A stretch of DNA of 64,000 nucleotides from Clostridiales bacterium (GTDB lineage Bacteria; Bacillota; Clostridia; Christensenellales; QALW01): assembly GCA_015069575.1 (NCBI GenBank), contig SVIH01000001.1, positions 114,385 through 178,384 on the forward strand, read 5' to 3'. Under the pieces are notes generated by a model, which was given only the letters and a program-made list of their open reading frames with translations, was not told the origin of the DNA and did not search any database. The position numbers and the translations under genes were made by a program. The stretch's first letter is position 1. The number at the start of each line of letters is the position of its first letter. Positions 5,260 to 28,021 of the stretch are shown piece after piece.

Positions 5260-6696
5260 ATGAGTACCATGGTTAAAAACGAAAAAAATCAGGCTGTTAT
5301 CAGTTTAGAGATCAGCAAAGAAGCAATGGACGCTGCAATAAGCGCAGTATTCCAAAGAAACAAGGGAAAATATGCAATTCCCGGTTTCCGCAAAGGTAAA
5401 GCACCTAGAAAAATGGTAGAACAATATTATGGCGCAGGCGTTTTCTTCGAAGATGCGTTTAACGATGTTTTACCGGGCGTTTACGAAGCAGCAGTTATTG
5501 AACTTGCACTTGAACCTGTTGACCGTCCTGAATTTGAAATTGAAGATATTACAGATGAAGGTATTATCAAGGTTAAAGCAACTGTTACACTTATGCCTGA
5601 AGTAAAACTTGGAAAATATGAAGGTATAAAGGTTGATTTAGTTGAGTATAATGTAACCGATGATGAAGTTGATCACGAAATTAAACATGCTCTTGATCGC
5701 GCTTCTCGTTTTGTTGATGTTGAAGATCGCGCAGTTATGATGGGCGATACTGTTGGTCTTAATTATTCCGGTTCAATTGATGGTGTTAAATTTGATGGCG
5801 GAACAGCCGAAAATCAAACTCTTGAAATTGGTTCAGGTAGCTTTATTCCCGGATTTGAAGATCAGATGGTTGGCATGAATATTGGTGAAGAAAAGGCAAT
5901 TAATGTTAAATTCCCCGATGAATATCACGCCGAGGATCTTAAAGGTAAAGAAGCTGTATTTGAAGTAAAGGTTCTTTCTATTAAAGAAAAGCAGGTTCCG
6001 GCTCTTGACGATGAATTTGCAAAAGATGTTTCAGAATTTGATACTTTAGATGAATATAAAGCTGATATTAAAGCAAAACTTACAGAACGCAAAAAGAATC
6101 AGGCTGAAACTGAAATGGAAAACAAAATGATTGAATCAATTGCTGAAAATTCAACAATCGATATTCCTGATTGCATGATCGAACAGCAAATTGATGCACA
6201 GCTTCGTGATATGGAAATGCGTATGAGCTATCAAGGTCTTAAACTTGAGGACTATATTAAGTACACAGGTATGACTATGGCACAGATGCGTGATATGTAT
6301 CGTGATGGTGCAAAGAAGACCGTTCAGATCAGACTTACTCTTGCAGAAATTATTAAAGCAGAAAAAATTGAGGCATCAGAAGAAGATATTAATGTAGAAA
6401 TTTCAAAGTATGCTGAAAATTATGGTACAAATGCAGATGAATTTATTAAAAATATTTCAGCAGATCAAAAAGAATACTTTAAAGAAATGGCTGTAATGAA
6501 TAAAACAATCGCTCTTTTAAAAGAAAAGAATCCTGCTAAAAAAGCTGCAAAAAAATCAACAAAGAAAACAGCCGAAAAAGCAGATAATGAAACAGCAACC
6601 AAAAAACCTGCAACTAAAAAAACAACAACTAAAAAAGCAGATGGCGAGACTTCTGCAAAAAAATCTACTGCAAAAAAGACAACAAAAAAAAGCTGA
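5260..6696 (+). CDS. tig: Trigger factor with Lys/Thr/Ala-rich C-terminal tail
   Basis: AIPGFRKGKAPRKMVEQYYG ribosome-binding signature, FKBP-type PPIase core (GFIPGFEDQMVGM), GGAGG RBS. Confidence 0.95.
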   Translation: MSTMVKNEKNQAVISLEISKEAMDAAISAVFQRNKGKYAIPGFRKGKAPRKMVEQYYGAGVFFEDAFNDVLPGVYEAAVIELALEPVDRPEFEIEDITDEGIIKVKATVTLMPEVKLGKYEGIKVDLVEYNVTDDEVDHEIKHALDRASRFVDVEDRAVMMGDTVGLNYSGSIDGVKFDGGTAENQTLEIGSGSFIPGFEDQMVGMNIGEEKAINVKFPDEYHAEDLKGKEAVFEVKVLSIKEKQVPALDDEFAKDVSEFDTLDEYKADIKAKLTERKKNQAETEMENKMIESIAENSTIDIPDCMIEQQIDAQLRDMEMRMSYQGLKLEDYIKYTGMTMAQMRDMYRDGAKKTVQIRLTLAEIIKAEKIEASEEDINVEISKYAENYGTNADEFIKNISADQKEYFKEMAVMNKTIALLKEKNPAKKAAKKSTKKTAEKADNETATKKPATKKTTTKKADGETSAKKSTAKKTTKKS

Positions 6697-20089: not shown

Positions 20090-20632
20090 ATGAAAGCCAC
20101 AGGAATAGTTAGAAGAATTGATGAACTTGGTAGGGTAGTAATACCTAAGGAAATAAGACGTACTCTCCGTTTTCGTGAAGGCGATCCGCTTGAAATATTT
20201 ACAGATAAAGATGGGGGAGTTGTTTTAAGAAAATATTCAATAATGGGTGATATTGAAGAGCATGCAAAAGAATTTGCTGAATCAATACATCACACATTAG
20301 GTCATACAACGGTTATTACCGATAAAGACATCGTAGTTGCAGCGGCAGGAAAAGGTAAAAAAGATTTAGTTGGTAAAAGCCTTTCTAAAGAACTACAAAA
20401 ACGAATTGATTCACGCAGGGGAATATTAACTGATAAAAAAACAAAAGATATGCCCATTCCTATTATTGAATTTGATCAAACTGAATACAATTCACAATGT
20501 ATTTTGCCAATTTTAGGTGCAGGTGATGTTTTAGGTGCGGTAGTTGTAACTTCAAATGACGATTCTTTAAGTCAGGTAGCTTACAAAAATGCAGAAACAG
20601 CTGCTTATTTTTTAGGTAGCCAGATAGAATAA
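20090..20632 (+). CDS. spoVT: Stage V sporulation protein T (AbrB-type N-domain plus GAF-like C-domain)
   Basis: MKATGIVRRIDELGRVVIPKEIRRTLRFREGDPLEIF swapped-hairpin domain, 180 aa total, GGAG RBS. Confidence 0.85.
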   Translation: MKATGIVRRIDELGRVVIPKEIRRTLRFREGDPLEIFTDKDGGVVLRKYSIMGDIEEHAKEFAESIHHTLGHTTVITDKDIVVAAAGKGKKDLVGKSLSKELQKRIDSRRGILTDKKTKDMPIPIIEFDQTEYNSQCILPILGAGDVLGAVVVTSNDDSLSQVAYKNAETAAYFLGSQIE

Positions 20633-20661
20633 AGAGGATGAAATCATTCATCCTCTTTTTT
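20631..20661 (+). terminator. Intrinsic terminator after spoVT (overlaps the last codons of the convergent recombinase gene)
   Basis: aaagaggatgaa-atca-ttcatcctcttt followed by a T run. Confidence 0.5.
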
Positions 20662-21690
20662 GTCTCTTAATTTAATTGATTTAGCGGCAATTCGCCTGTT
20701 TTCTTCTGCTTGTGCGGCATAATGACGCCTTGTTGTATTAACGTCTTTATGTCCTAAAACATCTGCAACAAGGTAAATATCACCTGTTTCCTGATATAGT
20801 GTTGTACCATAGGTTGAGCGTAATTTATGTGGCGTAATATGCTTTAATGGCGTTATAATTGAAGAATACTTTTTAACCAAATTCTGCACAGCGCGCGTTG
20901 AAATTCTTGTGCCTTGCAGTGATAAAAAGAATGCAGGGGAGTCTTCTGCACCTTTCATTATGTGACGTGTTTCATTGTAATCATTTAATGCTTCAGCAAC
21001 CTCATCACTTAAGTATAAAACAGATTGATTTCCGCCTTTTCTTGTTACACGAATACTTAAATTTCTAAAATCAACATCATCAACATTCAACCCAATACAT
21101 TCACTTATACGAATTCCAGTACCTAAAAATAGGGTAATAAGAGCTAAATCACGCTTTTTTGTTAATGCATGAAAATGTTTTTGTTTTTCACTTAATCCGT
21201 CACCAGATTCAATTTCATCAAGAAGTTTAACTATTTCATCTACATCAAGACGAATGATTGCCTTTTCATGAATTTTAGGCAAATCAACAAGTGATGCAAC
21301 ATTTGATTCCAAATCTCCAGATTTATAAAAATACTTAAACATCATTCGAATTGATGCAATTTTTCGCGCTTTACCGTTTTCGTGATTAGCAACAAGTTTT
21401 TTATCATCGTTTTCATATAGGGAAATATGATTTATGTAATTTTCAATATCATGAACATTTAACCGTTTTAAATCATCTAATGTTATGTTTTTTATTTCTT
21501 TATTTAACTCATTAGATAAAAATATAAAAAACAATCTTAAATCATATGCATAATTTAAACGAGTAAGCGGACCTGTAGTATTATTAATACCAATAAATAA
21601 TATTTTACAAAATTCAGGTAATTCATTTAAAACACCTTTTAATTTTTCATTTGCAGAATAAGTTCTTGATAAATAATAAGAATCAACCAT
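20644..21690 (-). CDS. Tyrosine site-specific recombinase, Xer-like (348 aa)
   Basis: All catalytic positions are visible: GIRISE (Arg), VTRKGG (Lys), PHKLRST (His-x-x-Arg), LGHKDV (His) and RRHY (Tyr). An N-terminal SAM-like core-binding domain is present. The gene lies just outside the left direct repeat of the prophage. Confidence 0.85.
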   Translation of the reverse strand: MVDSYYLSRTYSANEKLKGVLNELPEFCKILFIGINNTTGPLTRLNYAYDLRLFFIFLSNELNKEIKNITLDDLKRLNVHDIENYINHISLYENDDKKLVANHENGKARKIASIRMMFKYFYKSGDLESNVASLVDLPKIHEKAIIRLDVDEIVKLLDEIESGDGLSEKQKHFHALTKKRDLALITLFLGTGIRISECIGLNVDDVDFRNLSIRVTRKGGNQSVLYLSDEVAEALNDYNETRHIMKGAEDSPAFFLSLQGTRISTRAVQNLVKKYSSIITPLKHITPHKLRSTYGTTLYQETGDIYLVADVLGHKDVNTTRRHYAAQAEENRRIAAKSIKLRDKKEDE

Positions 21691-21745
21691 TTTAATTTAC
21701 ATCCTTTATTTTTAAAATTTTTATAAAAATAGGGTGCTTTGCAAT

Positions 21746-22708
21746 TTATAAACTATTCGCAAAACACAAGTTTTCCTGTTGGTTGTCCCAACGTGTATTT
21801 ATAAATTTTTTAAATTCAGGATGCATAGCAACTTCGTCGCGCCTGCATTGTTTTTCACTTTTCCAAGGTTTTGTAAGGAAGAAAAATTTTTTTTCACAAT
21901 GTTTTATAAAAACATCGTCAATAGATACACCATTTACCAAATCAAAATAAATAAGATTAGCAGCAAGCATTGAATCTTTATTCTTAAATTCAAATTCTAA
22001 ACGAGACCAATAGGGAAGACGCTCGTCAGTAATTTTCTGTTCTGTTCTTTTATCATAAATTCTAACAAAAGAAGAATGATTACGCTTACCAAAGTAAAGG
22101 GTCCAACCATTACGAATTTTACCATTTAAAAATTCAATTTCAGGTTTTAAAACCATACCTTGAGAATAAAACATACAGGATAAATCACCATAATTATCTT
22201 TGCAAAGATTTTCAAAAAAAGGTGTAAAATTATCTTTACAAAGGTCAATACGTGTACACTTAAAGGATTTATCACCATTATAAATAGGCGAAAAAAGACC
22301 ATAAGCCTTTATCTTGTAATGTAAATCAAGCAAAAACTGAAACATAACACCATTAGAGTAAAGCATACCACAAGCCGAACCTGTAAGAGAAAGAACAGAT
22401 ATTTCAGAATGACAACCACGAATCCAAGAGCATTTAAAAGTGCTATGTGTATTTTGACAAATATACATACGTTCATAGCCACCTTTAGAAACAAACTCGC
22501 CATTGTCCATTATAGCAGAGAAATTAAATCCGTAAGGTTGCAAAATAGATAATATTTCAGAATCATTAAAATTTTTAAAAGAAAAAGTTAGAGTATCAAT
22601 TAAAGTAGGACCATATTTAATATCATTTTCATAAAGATAATCAAGATTTAATTCACGTCTATCGCAATAAATTTCTTCATTCTTTTTGTAAAAATAACCT
22701 ACAGACAT
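21746..22708 (-). CDS. Rolling-circle replication initiator, Rep_trans-like (5-prime part of a rep gene apparently split by integration)
   Basis: Motifs resemble the Rep_trans/RstA family: TLIDTLTFSF near the N-terminus, CTRIDLCKDNF, and LYFGKRNHSSFVRIYDKRTEQ. The ORF ends inside the direct repeat (..ENLCFANSL*). Confidence 0.6.
   Translation of the reverse strand: MSVGYFYKKNEEIYCDRRELNLDYLYENDIKYGPTLIDTLTFSFKNFNDSEILSILQPYGFNFSAIMDNGEFVSKGGYERMYICQNTHSTFKCSWIRGCHSEISVLSLTGSACGMLYSNGVMFQFLLDLHYKIKAYGLFSPIYNGDKSFKCTRIDLCKDNFTPFFENLCKDNYGDLSCMFYSQGMVLKPEIEFLNGKIRNGWTLYFGKRNHSSFVRIYDKRTEQKITDERLPYWSRLEFEFKNKDSMLAANLIYFDLVNGVSIDDVFIKHCEKKFFFLTKPWKSEKQCRRDEVAMHPEFKKFINTRWDNQQENLCFANSL
21750..21774. 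repeat. Left copy of the 25-bp direct repeat (putative attL core)
   Basis: aaactattcgcaaaacacaagtttt is identical to 27115..27139; the flanking bases differ on both sides. Confidence 0.9.
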
Positions 22709-22729
22709 ATAAAACCACCTTAAAAATAT

Positions 22730-23100
22730 ATTAGGGGCATACCATAAGGTTGGCTTATACTATGCCGTACGGCATACCCCTTGCGCATTTATAGTATATT
22801 AAAAAAATAAGTGTTTGTCAATAGTTTTTTTAAAAGTGGGGCTTGTGTTACTCACAGCCCCACGAGATAGGAACCGAATACCTACTTAAGTATATACTTA
22901 AGTATGTCGTATAAAGCAATTTAAAGCAATAAAGAGACAGTTCGCCACTACGTTGGGTATCAAATAGGAATACCCACATAGCAAAAGGGAATATAGCCTA
23001 AAAACAGTTTTAAAAGGCTATGTACAATAAAACAACGTCATACAATAGATAAACCCTGTACTTTATATATTGCTTGACAGTAAGCCAAGCAATTAAGAAC
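22730..23100 (-). other. Hairpin-rich intergenic region of the element (candidate packaging signal and/or replication origin)
   Basis: Noncoding and visibly richer in G+C than the flanks. It holds perfect palindromes at 22761..22776 (16 nt) and 22883..22904 (22 nt). Stem-loops lie at 22836..22863, 22954..22976, 22993..23021 and 23070..23092. GGCATACC recurs at 22736 and 22771. Confidence 0.5.
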
Positions 23101-23140
23101 AAAAAAATAGCATAGGCGCCGTATCAAAACGGCCGCCTAT
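23101..23140 (-). terminator. Intrinsic terminator after the Zot-like gene
   Basis: Minus strand ataggcggccg-ttttgata-cggcgcctat hairpin (one bulge) followed by a T7 run. Confidence 0.55.
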
Positions 23141-23153
23141 ACTATTTTCTAAA

Positions 23154-23807
23154 TTATTTAACATTAAGATAATTCATTGTAGTAAACCATTCTTTACCAT
23201 TAGGGCAGGGAAGAACAGACATATTTATTGGCTCAAAGGAATCAAAATACTTATAATACAAAGGTCTAAAACAAAAAATAAATTGTTTTGGTTGAAATGG
23301 TAACAGCTGAAACAAAATTGATTTCCAATAATGTTGATATGCTAATTGTTTTGTTTGCTCATCAATACCTATTCTTTTATAAACACAACGTGCAAAAGAT
23401 AAAGGACCTATTTTACGGATAACCCATATCTCTTCGGCCAGATCCCTTAACTGTTTATCTGTATCATCCCAAGTTTGACTAAATAAATCAATATCCTGAT
23501 GTTCGTGACCGTGTTTCTTAAAATTTTCAATTACCCCAAAGGGAAGAGATGCAAATTTTCTACTATTAAAAGACAAACCTGATTCATCTAAAGCAATATA
23601 AGAATATTCAGGCAATTTAAACTTACCAAGCATAGAATCGTCAAAGTAATTAGATAGACCATAATTAGTTTCAAAATTACTAAAATGATACTTATATTTA
23701 ATACGTTTTAAATTAAGAAAATTCTTCTTCCGAAGATGCTTTTTCATAATTTTACAGGCAATAGTAGTTTTGCCAGAACGGGGAACACCAACAAAATATC
23801 TAATCAT
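23154..23807 (-). CDS. Zot/pI-like P-loop NTPase (filamentous phage assembly ATPase)
   Basis: The N-terminal MIRYFVGVPRSGKTT Walker A at the extreme N-terminus and the YIALDESG Walker B are typical of the Zot family. The start overlaps the upstream small ORF by ATGA. Confidence 0.6.
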   Translation of the reverse strand: MIRYFVGVPRSGKTTIACKIMKKHLRKKNFLNLKRIKYKYHFSNFETNYGLSNYFDDSMLGKFKLPEYSYIALDESGLSFNSRKFASLPFGVIENFKKHGHEHQDIDLFSQTWDDTDKQLRDLAEEIWVIRKIGPLSFARCVYKRIGIDEQTKQLAYQHYWKSILFQLLPFQPKQFIFCFRPLYYKYFDSFEPINMSVLPCPNGKEWFTTMNYLNVK

Positions 23808-23992
23808 TTTTTACCCCCAAAGATACAACGTAACAATGCAAAAACGTTACAAATAACGCAAAGAAGAATTACAGCTCCTATCATATATTCAATCATTAAA
23901 CCATAATCCCACGTTGCATTACTGCCGTATATAACCCGATAAAAATCAGCTTCACCTAAAACACGTCTTAAAGCCTCAATTAAACTTTCCAT
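23804..23992 (-). CDS. Small single-pass membrane protein (62 aa)
   Basis: Hydrophobic helix MIGAVILLCVICNVFALLRCIF with a basic end GGKK; translationally coupled to the Zot-like gene. Confidence 0.5.
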   Translation of the reverse strand: MESLIEALRRVLGEADFYRVIYGSNATWDYGLMIEYMIGAVILLCVICNVFALLRCIFGGKK

Positions 23993-23993
23993 A

Positions 23994-24065
23994 TTACCAC
24001 CTCATAAAAATTTGTAGACAAAGTATCATAAAAATACAAATTAACAAAAAAACAGTCATGCTCAT
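23994..24065 (-). CDS. Tiny hydrophobic ORF (23 aa: MSMTVFLLICIFMILCLQIFMRW)
   Basis: Hand-translated. The ATG overlaps the previous stop (ATGA), and the stop lies 1 nt before the next ATG. Below the track length cutoff. Confidence 0.25.
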   Translation of the reverse strand: MSMTVFLLICIFMILCLQIFMRW

Positions 24066-24172
24066 AAACTTGTAAACCCCTTAATCATAAGAAAAATAAA
24101 CCCTAGCATAAAAACAGCAAAAAGATAATTAAAACTAGAAAAAAAAATTTCAAGACAAGGCAAGATAATCAT
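24062..24172 (-). CDS. Tiny hydrophobic ORF (36 aa: MIILPCLEIFFSSFNYLFAVFMLGFIFLMIKGFTSL)
   Basis: Hand-translated. The start overlaps the previous stop by 1 nt (TGATG). Confidence 0.35.
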   Translation of the reverse strand: MIILPCLEIFFSSFNYLFAVFMLGFIFLMIKGFTSL

Positions 24173-24318
24173 CAAGAACGCGCTCCCTTCCAGAAAACAG
24201 AAATAACCATTCCGAAAATAGATAAAGCAACAAAAAACCAACCATAATAAATTGTAAAGCCTTCATATTCAAAAGTTATACCATTTAAAAATGTAAAAAA
24301 AGATATTACTAAATTCAT
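24172..24318 (-). CDS. Small membrane ORF (48 aa: MNLVISFFTFLNG...GWFFVALSIFGMVISVFWKGARS)
   Basis: Hand-translated. One clear TM helix with a basic C-terminus, in series with the neighbouring ORFs. Confidence 0.4.
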   Translation of the reverse strand: MNLVISFFTFLNGITFEYEGFTIYYGWFFVALSIFGMVISVFWKGARS

Positions 24319-24338
24319 TATAAATTGCAATGCCTGGA

Positions 24339-24566
24339 TCATTCGCTATATCCTCCCAAAGAAATCAAGATTTTAACAAGTGCTATAGCAATAACAAACA
24401 TTCCACATGAACCAATAATTGAGGGAATTTCAGGAGAAGTAAAAAGATCAATAGAATCTAATGCTCCCAATAATATTTCAAAAAAATTAACTATACTTTG
24501 TAAAGTATGAGTAATAATAGACCAAATGCTAGTAAAAAAATCAGCAACATTTTCAAAAAAAGACAT
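24339..24566 (-). CDS. Small membrane protein (75 aa), in the gVI-like position
   Basis: Two hydrophobic segments. The start is directly adjacent to the stop of the 374-aa ORF. Confidence 0.5.
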   Translation of the reverse strand: MSFFENVADFFTSIWSIITHTLQSIVNFFEILLGALDSIDLFTSPEIPSIIGSCGMFVIAIALVKILISLGGYSE

Positions 24567-25691
24567 TTAATCACCTTTTTTACCTTTCGATCGTTTATTA
24601 CCTGAAGATGAATATGTATTAGAGCGAGATGATACAAATTGAGCAAGACCAAATAAGAAACCTAGACAACCTAAACCAAGAGACATATATAAAACCACCC
24701 TTAAAAACGGTAGTCTTAACACATGATCATCAACAAAAGCAGATAAACCACGCATTGTAGAGACTAATTCAGGATATAAGGAGAGAACTGTAAACGAAAA
24801 ATCAACACTATTATCTTTTAATAAGTTTGAAGAAATTTCATTTATAGCAGATTCTTTATCAAAGAAAATATCCGACGTAGAATTATCAAAACTATTGTAA
24901 TTATTACCGCCTGTACCATCAATAATAGAACCAGCAACAGCATTTTGAACATCTTCAACAGTAACTTCAGTAAAATTTAATGGAGATAATGTATATTCAG
25001 TGTAAAAATAAGGATAATTATAATTACCATCAAGACGAACACCAACGCCACCAGAATTACCGAACCTGAAGAAAAAACCACAAATAAAGCCTGTAGATTT
25101 AAAATTAACAGTTAAATCAGCCTTATAAGTTAAAGAAGATGGATTAACAGTTAAAGAATCATTTTTTAAAGTACATGGAATTTGAGAATAATTTTCAATA
25201 GAACCAACATAAAAAGCAAAATAAGGATTATTTTCAAAAGAAGACTGCCAGAATTCGCCGTTATTAATTTTAACTGTAAGCATAATAGTAAAAGTAATGT
25301 CTTTATTTAAAAATGCATTAGATATAAAAAATTCTGGTGAAAGTTTTGTTGTTGGTACAGATAAAGAAAAATTATTAACAAAATTATATTTTCCTGAATA
25401 ATCAGGTTGAATAGGTGCAGTATTTTTAAAAGTAGTAATTAATTCTGAATTAGTAGAAACGTCATTTTCATATGTAAAAAAATTAGAATAAGATAAAGAA
25501 CCATATCCATCACCCAATTCATAACCAATTTGTATTTGATTCCGATACTTATCCCACAAACCAAATGTTAATTTATCTGATGCAGCATGCGCAGGCAAAG
25601 ACCAGGAAAGAAAAACAAATATAAAAACAAAAGCCGATGAAATAAGGGCTTTTAAATATTTTTTATTTTTAAAAGTTTTAAACAAAAACAT
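24567..25691 (-). CDS. Secreted, C-terminally anchored protein (374 aa), in the gIII-like adsorption/minor coat position
   Basis: Signal peptide ending SLPAHA/AS, a long Asn/Ser/Thr-rich beta-type ectodomain, then the C-terminal TM LGLGCLGFLFGLAQFV and a basic tail KRSKGKKGD. Confidence 0.55.
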   Translation of the reverse strand: MFLFKTFKNKKYLKALISSAFVFIFVFLSWSLPAHAASDKLTFGLWDKYRNQIQIGYELGDGYGSLSYSNFFTYENDVSTNSELITTFKNTAPIQPDYSGKYNFVNNFSLSVPTTKLSPEFFISNAFLNKDITFTIMLTVKINNGEFWQSSFENNPYFAFYVGSIENYSQIPCTLKNDSLTVNPSSLTYKADLTVNFKSTGFICGFFFRFGNSGGVGVRLDGNYNYPYFYTEYTLSPLNFTEVTVEDVQNAVAGSIIDGTGGNNYNSFDNSTSDIFFDKESAINEISSNLLKDNSVDFSFTVLSLYPELVSTMRGLSAFVDDHVLRLPFLRVVLYMSLGLGCLGFLFGLAQFVSSRSNTYSSSGNKRSKGKKGD

Positions 25692-25701
25692 AAAATCACC
25701 T

Positions 25702-25734
25702 AAAAAAAGGGAAAACTACATATGCAGTTTTCCC
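25702..25734 (-). terminator. Intrinsic terminator immediately after the coat-like gene
   Basis: Minus strand gggaaaact-gcatatgt-agttttccc followed by a T7 run, then the AGGTGA RBS of the 374-aa ORF. Confidence 0.6.
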
Positions 25735-25740
25735 AGAGAA

Positions 25741-25923
25741 TTATGAACGTACAAGACGTTGAAAAATACCGATAGCAAAAGAAATAACTGGCATTGCTAT
25801 TACAAGAATAAGCAACGCAGGATTACTAACTACGGTTTCAAGTACATCACCCATCCAAGTCATTGCCTGGGTAAAATATGTACCGATTGAAGCTAACATA
25901 GATTCCATAGCACCTTCAGCCAT
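25741..25923 (-). CDS. Major-coat-protein-like small protein (60 aa)
   Basis: Acidic/amphipathic N-part (MAEGAMESMLAS...), hydrophobic helix ALLILVIAMPVISFAIGIF, basic end QRLVRS. The ATG at 25923 has an AGGAG RBS; the track start at 25941 contains that RBS. Confidence 0.55.
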   Translation of the reverse strand: MAEGAMESMLASIGTYFTQAMTWMGDVLETVVSNPALLILVIAMPVISFAIGIFQRLVRS

Positions 25924-25986
25924 ATGGCATGCTCCTTTCATATTAAATTTTACTTTTATATATAAAATTGCAATTTTAATTAAAAA

Positions 25987-26112
25987 TTATAAATCAATAT
26001 CATTTTCTTTAAACTTTTTTAAAATCTTTTGTAAAGTAAAATAACAATACAATATAGAAAAATTAATAAGAAATAAATATAAACCTAAAATAAAATAAAT
26101 AAAAGTTTCCAT
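25987..26112 (-). CDS. Tiny membrane ORF (41 aa: METFIYFILGLYLFLINFSILYCYFTLQKILKKFKENDIDL)
   Basis: Hand-translated; AAGGTGA RBS 5 nt upstream. A competing 45-aa ORF at 26085..26222 (TAATG coupling to the 83-aa ORF) overlaps it in another frame. Confidence 0.35.
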   Translation of the reverse strand: METFIYFILGLYLFLINFSILYCYFTLQKILKKFKENDIDL

Positions 26113-26221
26113 AAAATCACCTTATAATTTCTAAATACAAAATAAATTAAAAAAAAATCAAGAATAAAAAGAAAAGAAAAGAAAATAAAAGAAAATAACA
26201 AAATATTTCCATAAATAACCA

Positions 26222-26473
26222 TTAAAATAGTTCTACAGAAGAAATTTCTTTTAAAGGTGCATAAACCGAAAGACCCAAAGAACCTTTAGAAGAATAGGGA
26301 ACAACGTCAAAGAGATCAACTAAACCGATAGGGTAAAGCGTTTTTAATTTTTCAATGTCAATATCCGAATTATAAAAAGTACTTAATTCTTCACCATATT
26401 GAGTTTGAAAGACTAACAAATACCCCTTATCTTTAATCTCACGTAATTCATTAACTTTTAATTTTGCTTTCAT
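26222..26473 (-). CDS. 83-aa soluble protein in the gV (ssDNA-binding protein) position
   Basis: Only size and position (between the regulator and the coat gene) support this call. No motif was recognised. Confidence 0.35.
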   Translation of the reverse strand: MKAKLKVNELREIKDKGYLLVFQTQYGEELSTFYNSDIDIEKLKTLYPIGLVDLFDVVPYSSKGSLGLSVYAPLKEISSVELF

Positions 26474-26681
26474 TTAAAATCACTCCTTTATAATATAATT
26501 TATTTTCAATAATTAAAAAATTATGAAAGCCATAAAAAGATAAAATAGAATATAAAGAATTATTTAAAGTAAAAAAACTATAATTTTCATAACGATGCAA
26601 CGTAGATTTAGAAATGTTCATGCGTTCTGATGCACGTCTTAAAGATAAACAACGTTCTAAACGTAAATCTTTTAAATTCAT
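26451..26681 (-). CDS. Small HTH (XRE-like) DNA-binding protein
   Basis: MNLKDLRLERCLSLRRASERMNISKSTLHRYENYS helix-turn-helix. The ATG at 26681 has an AGGTG RBS; the track start is a GTG inside the RBS. Confidence 0.6.
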   Translation of the reverse strand: MNLKDLRLERCLSLRRASERMNISKSTLHRYENYSFFTLNNSLYSILSFYGFHNFLIIENKLYYKGVILNESKIKS

Positions 26682-26690
26682 AAAAAACAC

Positions 26691-27134
26691 CTAAAGTTTA
26701 GAAAAATCATTAAAAGAAGAATTAAAAGAATTATCAGAAGAACTATTAAGGATAGCATTATTGAAAAAATCAGGGGAATAGTAATCGTTATTGCATTTTT
26801 CAACAATTTCAAGAACTTGTTCAAGAGATATTTCACCATCCATACAAACAGAACTTATAAAATCCCAGTAAACATCAGGAACAGATAATTCAAGACAGGG
26901 TATATCATTCATAATATCATTTGTATTACTACGATAATATACATAAATTGTTTTTTTAACATTATCAATACGGAACTGACGACCATCGGAATAAATTAAA
27001 TCTTGTAAACGATAGACAATTTGTTTAAATGTAAGGTTAGAAAGAACCTTTGGAACAAGGGCAGAGACAAGACGTTTAACAGTTTCATCGTTTTTGTTTT
27101 TATCCCAAAAAAACAAACTATTCGCAAAACACAA
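26691..27134 (-). CDS. ORF of 147 codons lacking its own ATG and RBS; probably the 3-prime part of the split rep gene
   Basis: The only start candidate is a TTG inside the direct repeat, with no Shine-Dalgarno sequence. Its first residues CFANSL duplicate the last residues of the Rep ORF in the same frame. Confidence 0.5.
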   Translation of the reverse strand: MCFANSLFFWDKNKNDETVKRLVSALVPKVLSNLTFKQIVYRLQDLIYSDGRQFRIDNVKKTIYVYYRSNTNDIMNDIPCLELSVPDVYWDFISSVCMDGEISLEQVLEIVEKCNNDYYSPDFFNNAILNSSSDNSFNSSFNDFSKL

Positions 27135-27139
27135 GTTTT
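27115..27139. repeat. Right copy of the 25-bp direct repeat (putative attR core)
   Basis: Identical to 21750..21774. Confidence 0.9.
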
Positions 27140-27149
27140 GCGAATAGTT
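27116..27149. repeat. Perfect 34-bp palindrome (15-bp arms, 4-nt centre): candidate recombinase core site; also usable as the spoIIP terminator hairpin
   Basis: aactattcgcaaaac-acaa-gttttgcgaatagtt. On the minus strand it is followed by tgttttttt. Confidence 0.9.
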
Positions 27150-27190
27150 AAGTATATTTTAAGCCAAAAATAAGGATTTGTCAATATAAT

Positions 27191-28021
27191 TTATAATATT
27201 TTATTAATTGCCTGCGCAATAATTTCCGTGCTGTTTTTTGCTTGTTGTAAATCGTTTCTTTCATTACCGATTTCAATTAAAATACATTTGTCTGATAAAT
27301 GTTGATTTAATCTTGCACTTTTTATAAAAATATCTTTTGCTAAATCAGGAAAAATTAAATTTATTTCATTATTAAGTTTTTCTGCAAATAAATAATTTTC
27401 TTTATAGTTTGGTTTTTCTTTATATTTAGTGCCGTTTGCTACTACGAACCTTATAAATGCATATTCTTTATTTAATTTTTTTGCATAATTTTTACCTGTT
27501 TGTTCAGAAAAAGCATCTCTGTGTAAATCAATATAAATATCGTAGTTTTTACCGTGTTTATTAATGTTTTTTAAGCTTGTATCATACGCATAATCAAAAC
27601 CTTCAGAAACATTATCACTTTTATCATGATAAACAATATATCCGTATTTTTCAAGGTGTGTTTTTAATGCTTCACCAACTGCAATAACATTATATTTTTC
27701 GTCAAATGTTCTGCCTGTATCTGTTTCTATATAATTTTTAGTTCCTTTATAATAGGCTTCATCGTTATGAGTATGATATATTAAAATGCTTAAAGGTTTT
27801 TCGGTTGGTTCAGGTGTAATTATAATTTTAGGCGTATATGTATTTAATGTATAATCGTTATCAATTATTGTTGCCTGTTCGCTTTTTCCACCTAAAAAAC
27901 ATAAAATTAAACTAAATAAAAGCATAAATACAACTGTTATAAATACAACTCTGCGCAAAATATATACTTTTCTCTTCTCTTTAAGCCGTAACCTACTTGT
28001 TTTTTCTATTTGTTTGTTCAT
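27191..28021 (-). CDS. spoIIP: Stage II sporulation protein P family (SpoIIP-like amidase/peptidase)
   Basis: N-terminal TM anchor, ILIYHTHNDEAY motif and DLHRDA, characteristic of the SpoIIP family. Confidence 0.6.
   Translation of the reverse strand: MNKQIEKTSRLRLKEKRKVYILRRVVFITVVFMLLFSLILCFLGGKSEQATIIDNDYTLNTYTPKIIITPEPTEKPLSILIYHTHNDEAYYKGTKNYIETDTGRTFDEKYNVIAVGEALKTHLEKYGYIVYHDKSDNVSEGFDYAYDTSLKNINKHGKNYDIYIDLHRDAFSEQTGKNYAKKLNKEYAFIRFVVANGTKYKEKPNYKENYLFAEKLNNEINLIFPDLAKDIFIKSARLNQHLSDKCILIEIGNERNDLQQAKNSTEIIAQAINKIL

Follow-up and report, generated by a model that had tools for sequence, protein, structure and literature searches.

We analysed a 64-kb stretch of a Clostridial genome (contig SVIH01000001.1), which we call the window and within which all feature coordinates are counted. 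The window is AT-rich, with a G+C content of about 30%. It contains a gene for a 348-aa tyrosine recombinase (xer), a neighbouring prophage that resembles the filamentous inoviruses and, at the far end of this prophage, a 34-bp palindrome with the appearance of a dif site (Table 1). The sporulation genes spoVT and spoIIP lie around this arrangement, and the host is therefore a spore-forming Clostridial bacterium. The 348-aa open reading frame (ORF) is the only tyrosine recombinase in the 64 kb, and it is located outside the prophage.

An earlier note on this DNA had described a perfect palindrome, a 25-bp repeat, a degenerate arm at the left junction and a recombinase gene about 60 bp from the site and outside the repeats. 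Direct reading of the sequence agrees with this description. The palindrome is perfect, the repeat is present in two exact copies (21750-21774 and 27115-27139), and the ORF at 20644-21690 starts 60 bp from the hybrid site at the left junction and lies outside both repeats. The note had also given the palindrome two 15-nt arms and a 4-nt centre. In this frame, the sequence at 27116-27149 reads aactattcgcaaaac-acaa-gttttgcgaatagtt and the left junction at 21751-21784 reads aactattcgcaaaac-acaa-gttttcctgttggtt, where the right arm matches at 10 of 15 positions. Although the palindrome is indeed perfect here, the architecture conserved across the 60 sites described below is 14-6-14, and the site in the window looks like 15-4-15 only because the first and last bases of its centre, CACAAG, are complementary by coincidence.

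Allowing three mismatches at most, we found the full site once in the window and in none of 100 shuffled sequences, while the 14-nt arm occurs three times against an expectation of 0.15. As both counts exceed those of the shuffles and of expectation, the palindrome is not a product of chance. Chance was also rejected as the origin of the direct repeat. Within the 64 kb, one full and one hybrid copy of the site were counted.

As judged from its genes, the element between the repeats is an inovirus-like prophage without an integrase. It combines a Zot/pI ATPase, a Rep_trans domain and small hydrophobic ORFs in 5.34 kb, in agreement with inoviruses, which have a rolling-circle Rep, small coat proteins and genomes of 4-12 kb; its genes lie on one strand. 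Its Zot protein shares 28-36% identity with those annotated in circular Inoviridae genomes of 5-7 kb from mammalian faeces. A filamentous phage had already been suspected, and the presence of Zot and Rep_trans in an element that encodes no recombinase bears this out: among the phage ORFs of at least 62 aa that were scanned against Pfam, NCBIfam and PHROGs, none matched a recombinase family. The three small ORFs at 23804-24566 gave no family match in PHROGs, and the 374-aa protein gave none in NCBIfam, Pfam or PHROGs; the latter is a candidate for a pIII-like adsorption protein. The intergenic region at 22709-23153 probably comprises the origin and regulatory region of the phage. No relatives of the phage Rep were found in IMG/VR, and no homologs of the prophage proteins in the 80 species loci described below.

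Table 1. Features of the recombinase-prophage locus, with positions in the 64-kb window.
Feature	Position	Strand	Basis
spoVT	20090-20632		profile match
Xer-type tyrosine recombinase of the host (348 aa); XerS-like, provisionally classed as a single Xer of Clostridia	20644-21690	-	Pfam Phage_integrase (1.7e-32) and NCBIfam
rep N-terminal fragment, 320 aa, Rep_trans domain	21746-22708	-	Pfam Rep_trans (1.1e-14)
25-bp exact direct repeat AAACTATTCGCAAAACACAAGTTTT, left copy (crossover region)	21750-21774	unstranded	repeat family D15
Hybrid junction site: perfect arm, centre CACAAG, degenerate phage-derived arm TTTTCCTGTTGGTT (9/14)	21751-21784	unstranded	position weight matrix arm scores 22.9 and -12.6
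Inovirus-like prophage, 5.34 kb between repeats, called genes all on the - strand	21775-27114	-	Pfam, NCBIfam, PHROGs, Zot comparison
Phage intergenic region with promoter-like TTGACA-17-TATACT at 22821-22793, upstream of rep	22709-23153	-	consensus match
Zot/pI-like assembly ATPase, 217 aa	23154-23807	-	Pfam Zot; PHROG Zot-like (6.8e-11)
Three small ORFs (62, 56 and 75 aa), candidate minor coat/assembly proteins	23804-24566	-	position and residue composition
374-aa protein, hydrophobic N-terminal stretch, C-terminal hydrophobic anchor	24567-25691	-	translation
66-aa hydrophobic protein, basic C-terminus; candidate major coat protein	25741-25941	-	translation
83-aa protein without family matches, placed like an inovirus single-stranded DNA-binding protein gene (putative)	26222-26473	-	position
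Helix-turn-helix regulator, 79 aa (76 aa as called on other contigs)	26451-26690	-	Pfam HTH_31/HTH_3; PHROG transcriptional regulator
rep C-terminal fragment, about 140 aa	26691-27139	-	cut off by integration
25-bp exact direct repeat, right copy	27115-27139	unstranded	repeat search
Intact dif-like site AACTATTCGCAAAA-CACAAG-TTTTGCGAATAGTT, perfect palindrome	27116-27149	unstranded	45.8 bits; both arms equal the consensus arm
Promoter-like TTGACA-17-TAAAAT, ending 6 nt before the site	27156-27184	-	consensus match
spoIIP	27191-28021		profile match

When the phage ends are joined, they form a phage attachment site (attP) that reads AACTATTCGCAAAA-CACAAG-TTTTCCTGTTGGTT, with one perfect arm, a centre identical to that of the host site and a second arm that matches at 9 of 14 positions. 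In the circular form, the rep frame crosses this core without a stop, with 26691-27139 in frame with 21775-22708, which gives a Rep protein of 460 aa. Three Rep homologs of 449, 449 and 431 aa (59%, 55% and 39% identical) align over 92-95% of the fused ORF, and the alignment spans the junction motif ENLCFA. Support for the fusion comes from these full-length homologs, since the Pfam match of Rep_trans on the fused protein spans residues 150-305 and does not reach further. In the prophage, integration has separated a 320-aa part of rep, on which the Rep_trans match falls, from a C-terminal part of 140 aa; the stop codon of the former lies in host DNA, just past the core. Integration would disable or alter the replication of the phage, and excision would restore it. 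Moreover, the uninterrupted rep genes of two of these homologs, on the related free phage contigs L214 and L215, carry, at the same codons, AACACTTCGCAAAA-CACAAG-TTTT followed by a degenerate arm. The dif of the hosts L005 and L212 has the same arm variant, and hence the phage lineage tracks the dif of its hosts.

We propose that attP mimics dif through its perfect arm, identical centre and degenerate second arm, and that the host Xer would exchange strands at the borders of the shared 6-bp centre. As this centre is identical in attP and in the host site, both pairs of strand exchanges would be possible. The products would be a weak hybrid site beside xer and a perfect dif rebuilt on the spoIIP side, so that the host would retain a usable site. 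The same recombinase would excise the phage and restore rep, and the degenerate arm would limit excision. An element without a recombinase of its own that bears a dif mimic, and whose integrated form has dif at one end and a hybrid site at the other, corresponds to an integrative mobile element exploiting Xer (IMEX). From its sequence, this appears to be the best explanation for the filamentous phage in the window.

An empty site can be reconstructed by joining the host flanks, and the proposal that it should be found beside the recombinase ortholog of relatives was confirmed in L213 and L212, both with the order spoIIP-palindrome-xer. In L213, whose recombinase is 91% identical, spoIIP and xer are separated by a spacer of 133 bp without a prophage. 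This spacer reads ...aaaatatactc AACTATTCGCAAAACTTGTGTTTTGCGAATAGTT tataaatt... and contains a perfect 34-bp palindrome with the same flanks as predicted. L212, with a recombinase that is 95% identical, carries AACACTTCGCAAAACTTGTGTTTTGCGAATAGTT at the same place. Look-ups by identical Xer or identical SpoIIP protein returned prophage-bearing contigs only. In the search for an empty site in the same species, two exact-pattern scans of metagenome contigs gave no matches and are uninformative, because three contigs of the Joint Genome Institute (L205-L207), which came from the protein look-up, contain the second pattern, the exact right junction.

The Phage_integrase match of the 348-aa protein covers residues 148-329. 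A full catalytic set had been claimed for it, and R194, K218, H288, R291, H314 and Y324 are invariant in an alignment of 19 members of the family. Among the NCBIfam models, XerS ranks first, followed by archaeal XerA, XerC and XerD, none of them at its equivalog cut-off; the XerS model NF003462 gives 176.5 bits over model positions 6-354 of 360, where the curated threshold is 267 bits. XerS was matched by each of the 19 members sampled, and none of the other families matched reached its best E-value of 5.9e-60, which still falls short of the 267-bit level. Compared with solved structures, XerA and XerD are closest (62-64 bits), and the XerH structure 5JJV is remote (33.7 bits). Scans with hidden Markov models (HMMs) thus place the enzyme in the Xer group, nearest to XerS by score and not among the arm-binding phage integrases. 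By these scans it is a Xer-group enzyme with XerS-like size and gene-site linkage that falls outside the XerS equivalog.

It might be argued that the recombinase is the integrase of a phage or of a larger mobile element, with true borders beyond the 25-bp repeats and the palindrome as no more than an attachment core. The gene adjoins the prophage, and PHROGs places the protein with integrases (phrog_1). However, the gene and an intact site are found without a phage in L213, in L212 and in dozens of other species, the repeats do not enclose the gene, and the genes called on the related free phage contigs L214-L216 include no recombinase. An arm-binding domain was not found by Pfam, and the HMM scans speak for the Xer group. 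We consider this explanation very unlikely and rejected it, largely on account of the empty sites.

We asked how widely the gene and the site occur together, using one genome per GTDB species and keeping the best 80 of 599 loci as stretches of about 13 kb. Full-length orthologs of the recombinase with more than 50% identity were found throughout the Clostridia. Of the 80 loci, 58 have a strong match to AACTATTCGCAAAA-N6-TTTTGCGAATAGTT in the 6 kb upstream of the ortholog, at a distance of no more than 300 bp in about 30 of them. The earlier claim of a recombinase-linked site thus extends well beyond the window, to Christensenella, Lachnospiraceae, Roseburia, Enterocloster, Hungatella and Caldicoprobacterales. 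Over 57 loci, the neighbour across the site from xer falls into 33 unrelated clusters, and the linkage is accordingly with xer itself instead of a block of conserved gene order. Where the site sits 0.4-3.8 kb from xer, no second half-sites were found. In L084, the only such locus that was inspected, the gap is filled by serS, an ordinary gene, and distance alone is therefore no sign of an inserted element.

We aligned 60 orthologous sites (from L005-L084, L212 and L213) and found that the conserved unit consists of two 14-nt arms around a variable 6-nt centre. The arms co-vary, as in AAGACTTCG...CGAAGTCTT and TATGCGC...GCGCATA, with changes on both arms at positions 1-5 and 7. Arm complementarity was found in 726 of 840 cells, compared with a mean of 672 (standard deviation 7.7, maximum 694) when the right arms were shuffled among sites. 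Such co-variation is expected if one protein species binds both arms, and the alignment supports recognition of both by a single, presumably the linked, protein. Positions 10-11 of the arms are often asymmetric, with GCAAAA on one side and TTTTAC on the other in 24 of the 60 sites. The orientation of the centre relative to xer flips between taxa, being CTTGTG in the clade of the window and CACAAG in Christensenella. At L061:1507-1540, a perfect arm and centre stand beside xer with an unrecognisable gene-proximal arm, in a polarity opposite to that of the hybrid site in the window.

At a replication terminus, GC skew is positive on the left and negative on the right, whichever strand is read. 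For the 51 loci with enough flanking sequence, the skew in the 4 kb to the left and the 7 kb to the right of the site was (+,-) in 37, (-,-) in 9, (+,+) in 5 and (-,+) in none. This convergence holds although xer itself is a + strand gene of the right flank. The maximum of the cumulative skew is interior to most of the 13-kb loci, at a median of 1.3 kb toward xer, and the minimum lies at an end. Hence, the converging skew at the site is supported as a terminus signature across species. Purine-rich k-mers point to the site from both sides (for example GAAGAGG, 124 versus 15), and the known FtsK-orienting motifs GAGAAGGG, GAAGAAG and GGGNAGGG as well as the top skewed 7- and 8-mers all point toward it. 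As the motifs are purine-rich and Shine-Dalgarno-like, this polarity is inseparable from gene orientation. In the window, the skew is steadily negative from about 19 to 48 kb, mostly negative from 48 to 64 kb and mixed from 1 to 19 kb. The site in the window lies in a terminus-like region and not exactly at the skew peak, and the terminus is therefore placed roughly and appears diffuse. Gene orientation in the window is mixed from 1 to 19 kb and mostly on the - strand from 19 to 64 kb.

Overall, we consider it probable that the gene and the site form a Clostridial gene-linked, single-recombinase dif/Xer module near the terminus, similar to XerS/difSL, and that the 5.3-kb phage is an IMEX which uses it. 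The 348-aa protein would be the chromosomal Xer-type recombinase of the Clostridia and the 34-bp palindrome its core site. Each 14-bp arm would bind one monomer of the same protein around the 6-bp crossover region, and the module would resolve chromosome dimers near the replication terminus under the control of FtsK. Both the binding and cleavage of the site by the 348-aa protein and the resolution of dimers are what we infer from the features described above.

Several observations weigh against this interpretation. In the window, the cumulative skew reaches its maximum near 8 kb, some 13 kb away from the site; the earlier idea of a terminus at this locus is thus supported by the converging skew of 37 of the 51 loci, with none diverging, and not by the peak of the window itself. 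Skew and k-mer polarity could partly reflect a convergent orientation of genes instead of replication. In 22 of the 80 loci the site was not seen, although 10 of these have less than 3 kb of upstream flank, and the recombinase scores below the cut-off of the XerS equivalog. Moreover, neither an empty site of the exact phage in the window nor its free circular form was found, and all 18 conspecific contigs that were read carry the prophage, so that its present mobility is presumptive.

A further explanation accepts a real recombination module that is exploited by phages, but assigns the resolution of dimers to a canonical XerC/XerD pair and a dif elsewhere in the genome. The gene and site described here would then be an accessory landing pad, the remnant of a mobile module or a self-regulating recombinase. 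According to Garcia et al. 2021 (PMC8136486), XerC/XerD are widespread in Firmicutes, the distance between site and skew peak in the window would fit, and transcription of xer in the clade of the window probably begins at the site, which would suit autoregulation. Nevertheless, the skew converges at the site in species whose flanking genes vary, and the recombinase is conserved across orders with more than 50% identity in a vertical-looking manner. In a prediction from 2011, a canonical dif was located at the skew switch in Desulfitobacterium, Desulfotomaculum and Desulforudis (PMC3025954). The same approach failed in C. perfringens and C. beijerinckii, and the dif of C. botulinum was placed 174 degrees from the switch (PMC3025954 and its supplement), so that canonical predictions are poor or unsuccessful in Clostridium species. 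It is also conceivable that Firmicutes-wide counts of XerC/XerD include the Clostridial family described here. Taken together, we regard an accessory role as unlikely.

The proposed dimer-resolution module shares features with several known single-recombinase systems. Like this module, XerS/difSL of streptococci and lactococci has one recombinase, some 350 aa in length and with an extended N-terminal domain, whose gene adjoins the site, and in both cases the arms run into the centre with AAAA/TTTT (difSL TTTCCGAAAA...TTTTCTTGAAA, PMC5357621). In contrast, difSL has 31 bp, unequal and imperfect arms and a reported centre of 11 bp, whereas the site described here has 34 bp, near-perfect 14-bp arms and a 6-bp centre. 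The hosts differ as well, being Lactobacillales there and Clostridia here, where the module is predicted from sequence. In XerH/difH of Helicobacter and Campylobacter, one recombinase likewise lies close to its site, whose rather palindromic arms end in GAAAA and whose centre is of the 6-bp class; however, this system belongs to another phylum, and the relation between the proteins is weak, given the 33.7 bits for 5JJV compared with 62-64 for XerA and XerD. In Legionella, the attachment site of the mobile element LME-1 revealed a previously unrecognised single-recombinase dif, which has long, unbroken inverted repeats and is found near the terminus with variable neighbours (XerL/dif, PMC9765430). 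There, dif and xerL are more than 400 kb apart and not adjacent, and the two proteins are not close relatives. XerL/dif is proven experimentally, while the evidence for the Clostridial module is drawn from sequence.

Among elements that exploit Xer, TLC-phi and the gonococcal island offer the closest parallel to the phage, with an attP of one dif-matching arm and centre and a divergent other arm (PMC5357621) and no integrase. Their integration also regenerates a functional dif and leaves a weak hybrid site. They depend, however, on the two proteins XerC and XerD with control by FtsK or XafT, whereas one protein would bind both arms here, and they differ from the phage in the window in that the attP of the latter lies inside the rep coding sequence and its integration splits rep. 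To our knowledge, no IMEX has been described whose attP lies in rep and whose integration splits this gene. CTX-phi is also a filamentous phage that enters dif via the host Xer proteins without an integrase. Its attP is a folded single-strand hairpin (PMC5357621) and its integration is irreversible, whereas the attP in the window would be double-stranded with an arm and an identical centre, which makes two-strand exchange and excision possible in principle.

The inoviruses described from Enterocloster and Hungatella are small single-stranded DNA phages of gut bacteria with direct repeats and without an integrase, as is the phage described here; the paper reports the repeats and names no recombinase or dif (PMC10061712). 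Enterocloster-type half-sites are absent from IMG/VR, and the junction primers of that paper (PMC10061712) are absent from the xer locus of E. bolteae, so that a link was not found. Microviruses that integrate at dif (PMC3091885) are likewise small single-stranded DNA phages with direct repeats and without an integrase, but the described cases use hosts with XerC/XerD. Microvirus prophages are reported in the surveyed literature from Bacteroidales, Hyphomicrobiales and Enterobacteriaceae only.

Sites of this kind are also present on other elements. L181 is an inovirus with a G2P-family Rep and Zot, located between two dif-like sites beside the host dtd gene. Its sites at 606-640 and 5956-5989 have different centres (TGGGTG and CACAGC), and one right arm has an extra base, which suggests a mode of exchange different from that of the phage in the window. 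At L112:1056-2711, a gokushovirus-like provirus (Chp2 scaffold, ORF5) ends at a site beside serS. Enterobacterial gokushoviruses are among the microviruses known to integrate at dif. The free circular genome of Bajarodmic virus 400 (Microviridae, PQ006515.1 = L217, 3572-3605) carries AACTATTCGCAAAA-GACAGC-TTGTGCGAAAAGTA in an intergenic position, and GACAGC is the dif centre of several host loci. Similarly, Bajarodino virus 51 (Inoviridae, free circular, PQ006112) carries AACTATTCGCAAAA-CACAGC followed by a degenerate arm. In L219 (MG945271.1, 122-155), a free Microviridae genome, non-coding DNA also holds a perfect arm and a centre of host type together with a weaker arm.

In addition, more than 80 IMG/VR contigs of 30-60 kb (within L085-L204) carry near-perfect sites. 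The two commonest variants are AACTATTCGCAAAACCTAACTTTTCCGAATAGTT with an additional CGAATAGTT after it, in 52 contigs, and AACTATTCGCAAAACCCTTGTTTTG(C/T)GTAATG(T/C)A, in 30. Two of these large contigs, one per variant, were sampled; one encodes a terminase large subunit and the other MazG and HNH proteins. A tyrosine recombinase is encoded in only 2 of the 120 fetched IMG/VR stretches. The sites on the large viral contigs may serve Xer-mediated integration or the resolution of multimers.

The named single-recombinase systems are XerS, XerH, XerA and XerL, and Clostridia are not mentioned among their hosts (PMC5357621, PMC9765430). In the literature on Xer/dif in Clostridia or Lachnospiraceae we found no description of such a system, though further papers may exist. 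A wider reading, to which we give an even chance, is that much of the Clostridia, including Lachnospiraceae, Christensenellales and other dominant lineages of gut and rumen, resolves dimers by an undescribed single recombinase, the fifth after the four named ones, with a 34-bp palindromic dif beside its own gene. The site would then be a common entry for integrase-less inoviruses and microviruses, possibly also for some tailed phages, and the host Xer would switch the phage between a replication-competent circle with a whole rep and a silent prophage with a split rep.

If confirmed, this would supply a dif/Xer system for a large class of medical and ecological importance, where searches for a canonical dif were unsuccessful or put it in the wrong place (PMC3025954). 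Lysogeny without an integrase in Gram-positive filamentous phages and in gut microviruses would then be explained as well. The consensus AACTATTCGCAAAA-N6-TTTTGCGAATAGTT could be used to locate the terminus and cryptic prophages in metagenome-assembled genomes, and the attP embedded in rep suggests a simple control of phage replication by the state of integration. With one protein and a symmetric site of 34 bp, the system would be compact.

The site also has a transcriptional context. The promoter-like element at 27156-27184 and its spacing are conserved in L005, L006, L212 and L213, and in the empty configuration this element is probably the xer promoter. Since it ends 6 nt before the site, the site would sit at the start of the xer transcript. 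In the lysogen, the promoter-like element is 5.4 kb from xer and faces the prophage, and xer follows 55 bp after the truncated rep. More distant taxa have their best promoter-like element between the site and the start codon.

On the - strand at 27106-27149, the palindrome followed by the phage T-run TGTTTTTTTG scores as an intrinsic terminator, 41 bp after spoIIP, and could insulate the prophage of the lysogen from host read-through. This score, together with the adjacent promoter-like element, could be taken to mean that the palindrome is merely the terminator of spoIIP or an operator of xer, and that the phage was inserted by Rep-mediated or illegitimate recombination. Yet the T-run is phage DNA and is missing from the empty site of L213, and the sequence of the arms, not only their pairing, is conserved across families beside xer, irrespective of which gene lies upstream. 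One-armed copies whose centres match those of hosts occur in unrelated phages, and the junctions are exact at the core. We find this account hardly credible, and the palindrome as a mere terminator was rejected because the T-run is phage-borne and the arms are conserved beside xer. The phage sequence at 22790-22833, upstream of rep, is 73% identical over 44 nt to the host sequence at 27153-27196, and both hold TTGACA; this similarity could be due to chance or to promoter mimicry.

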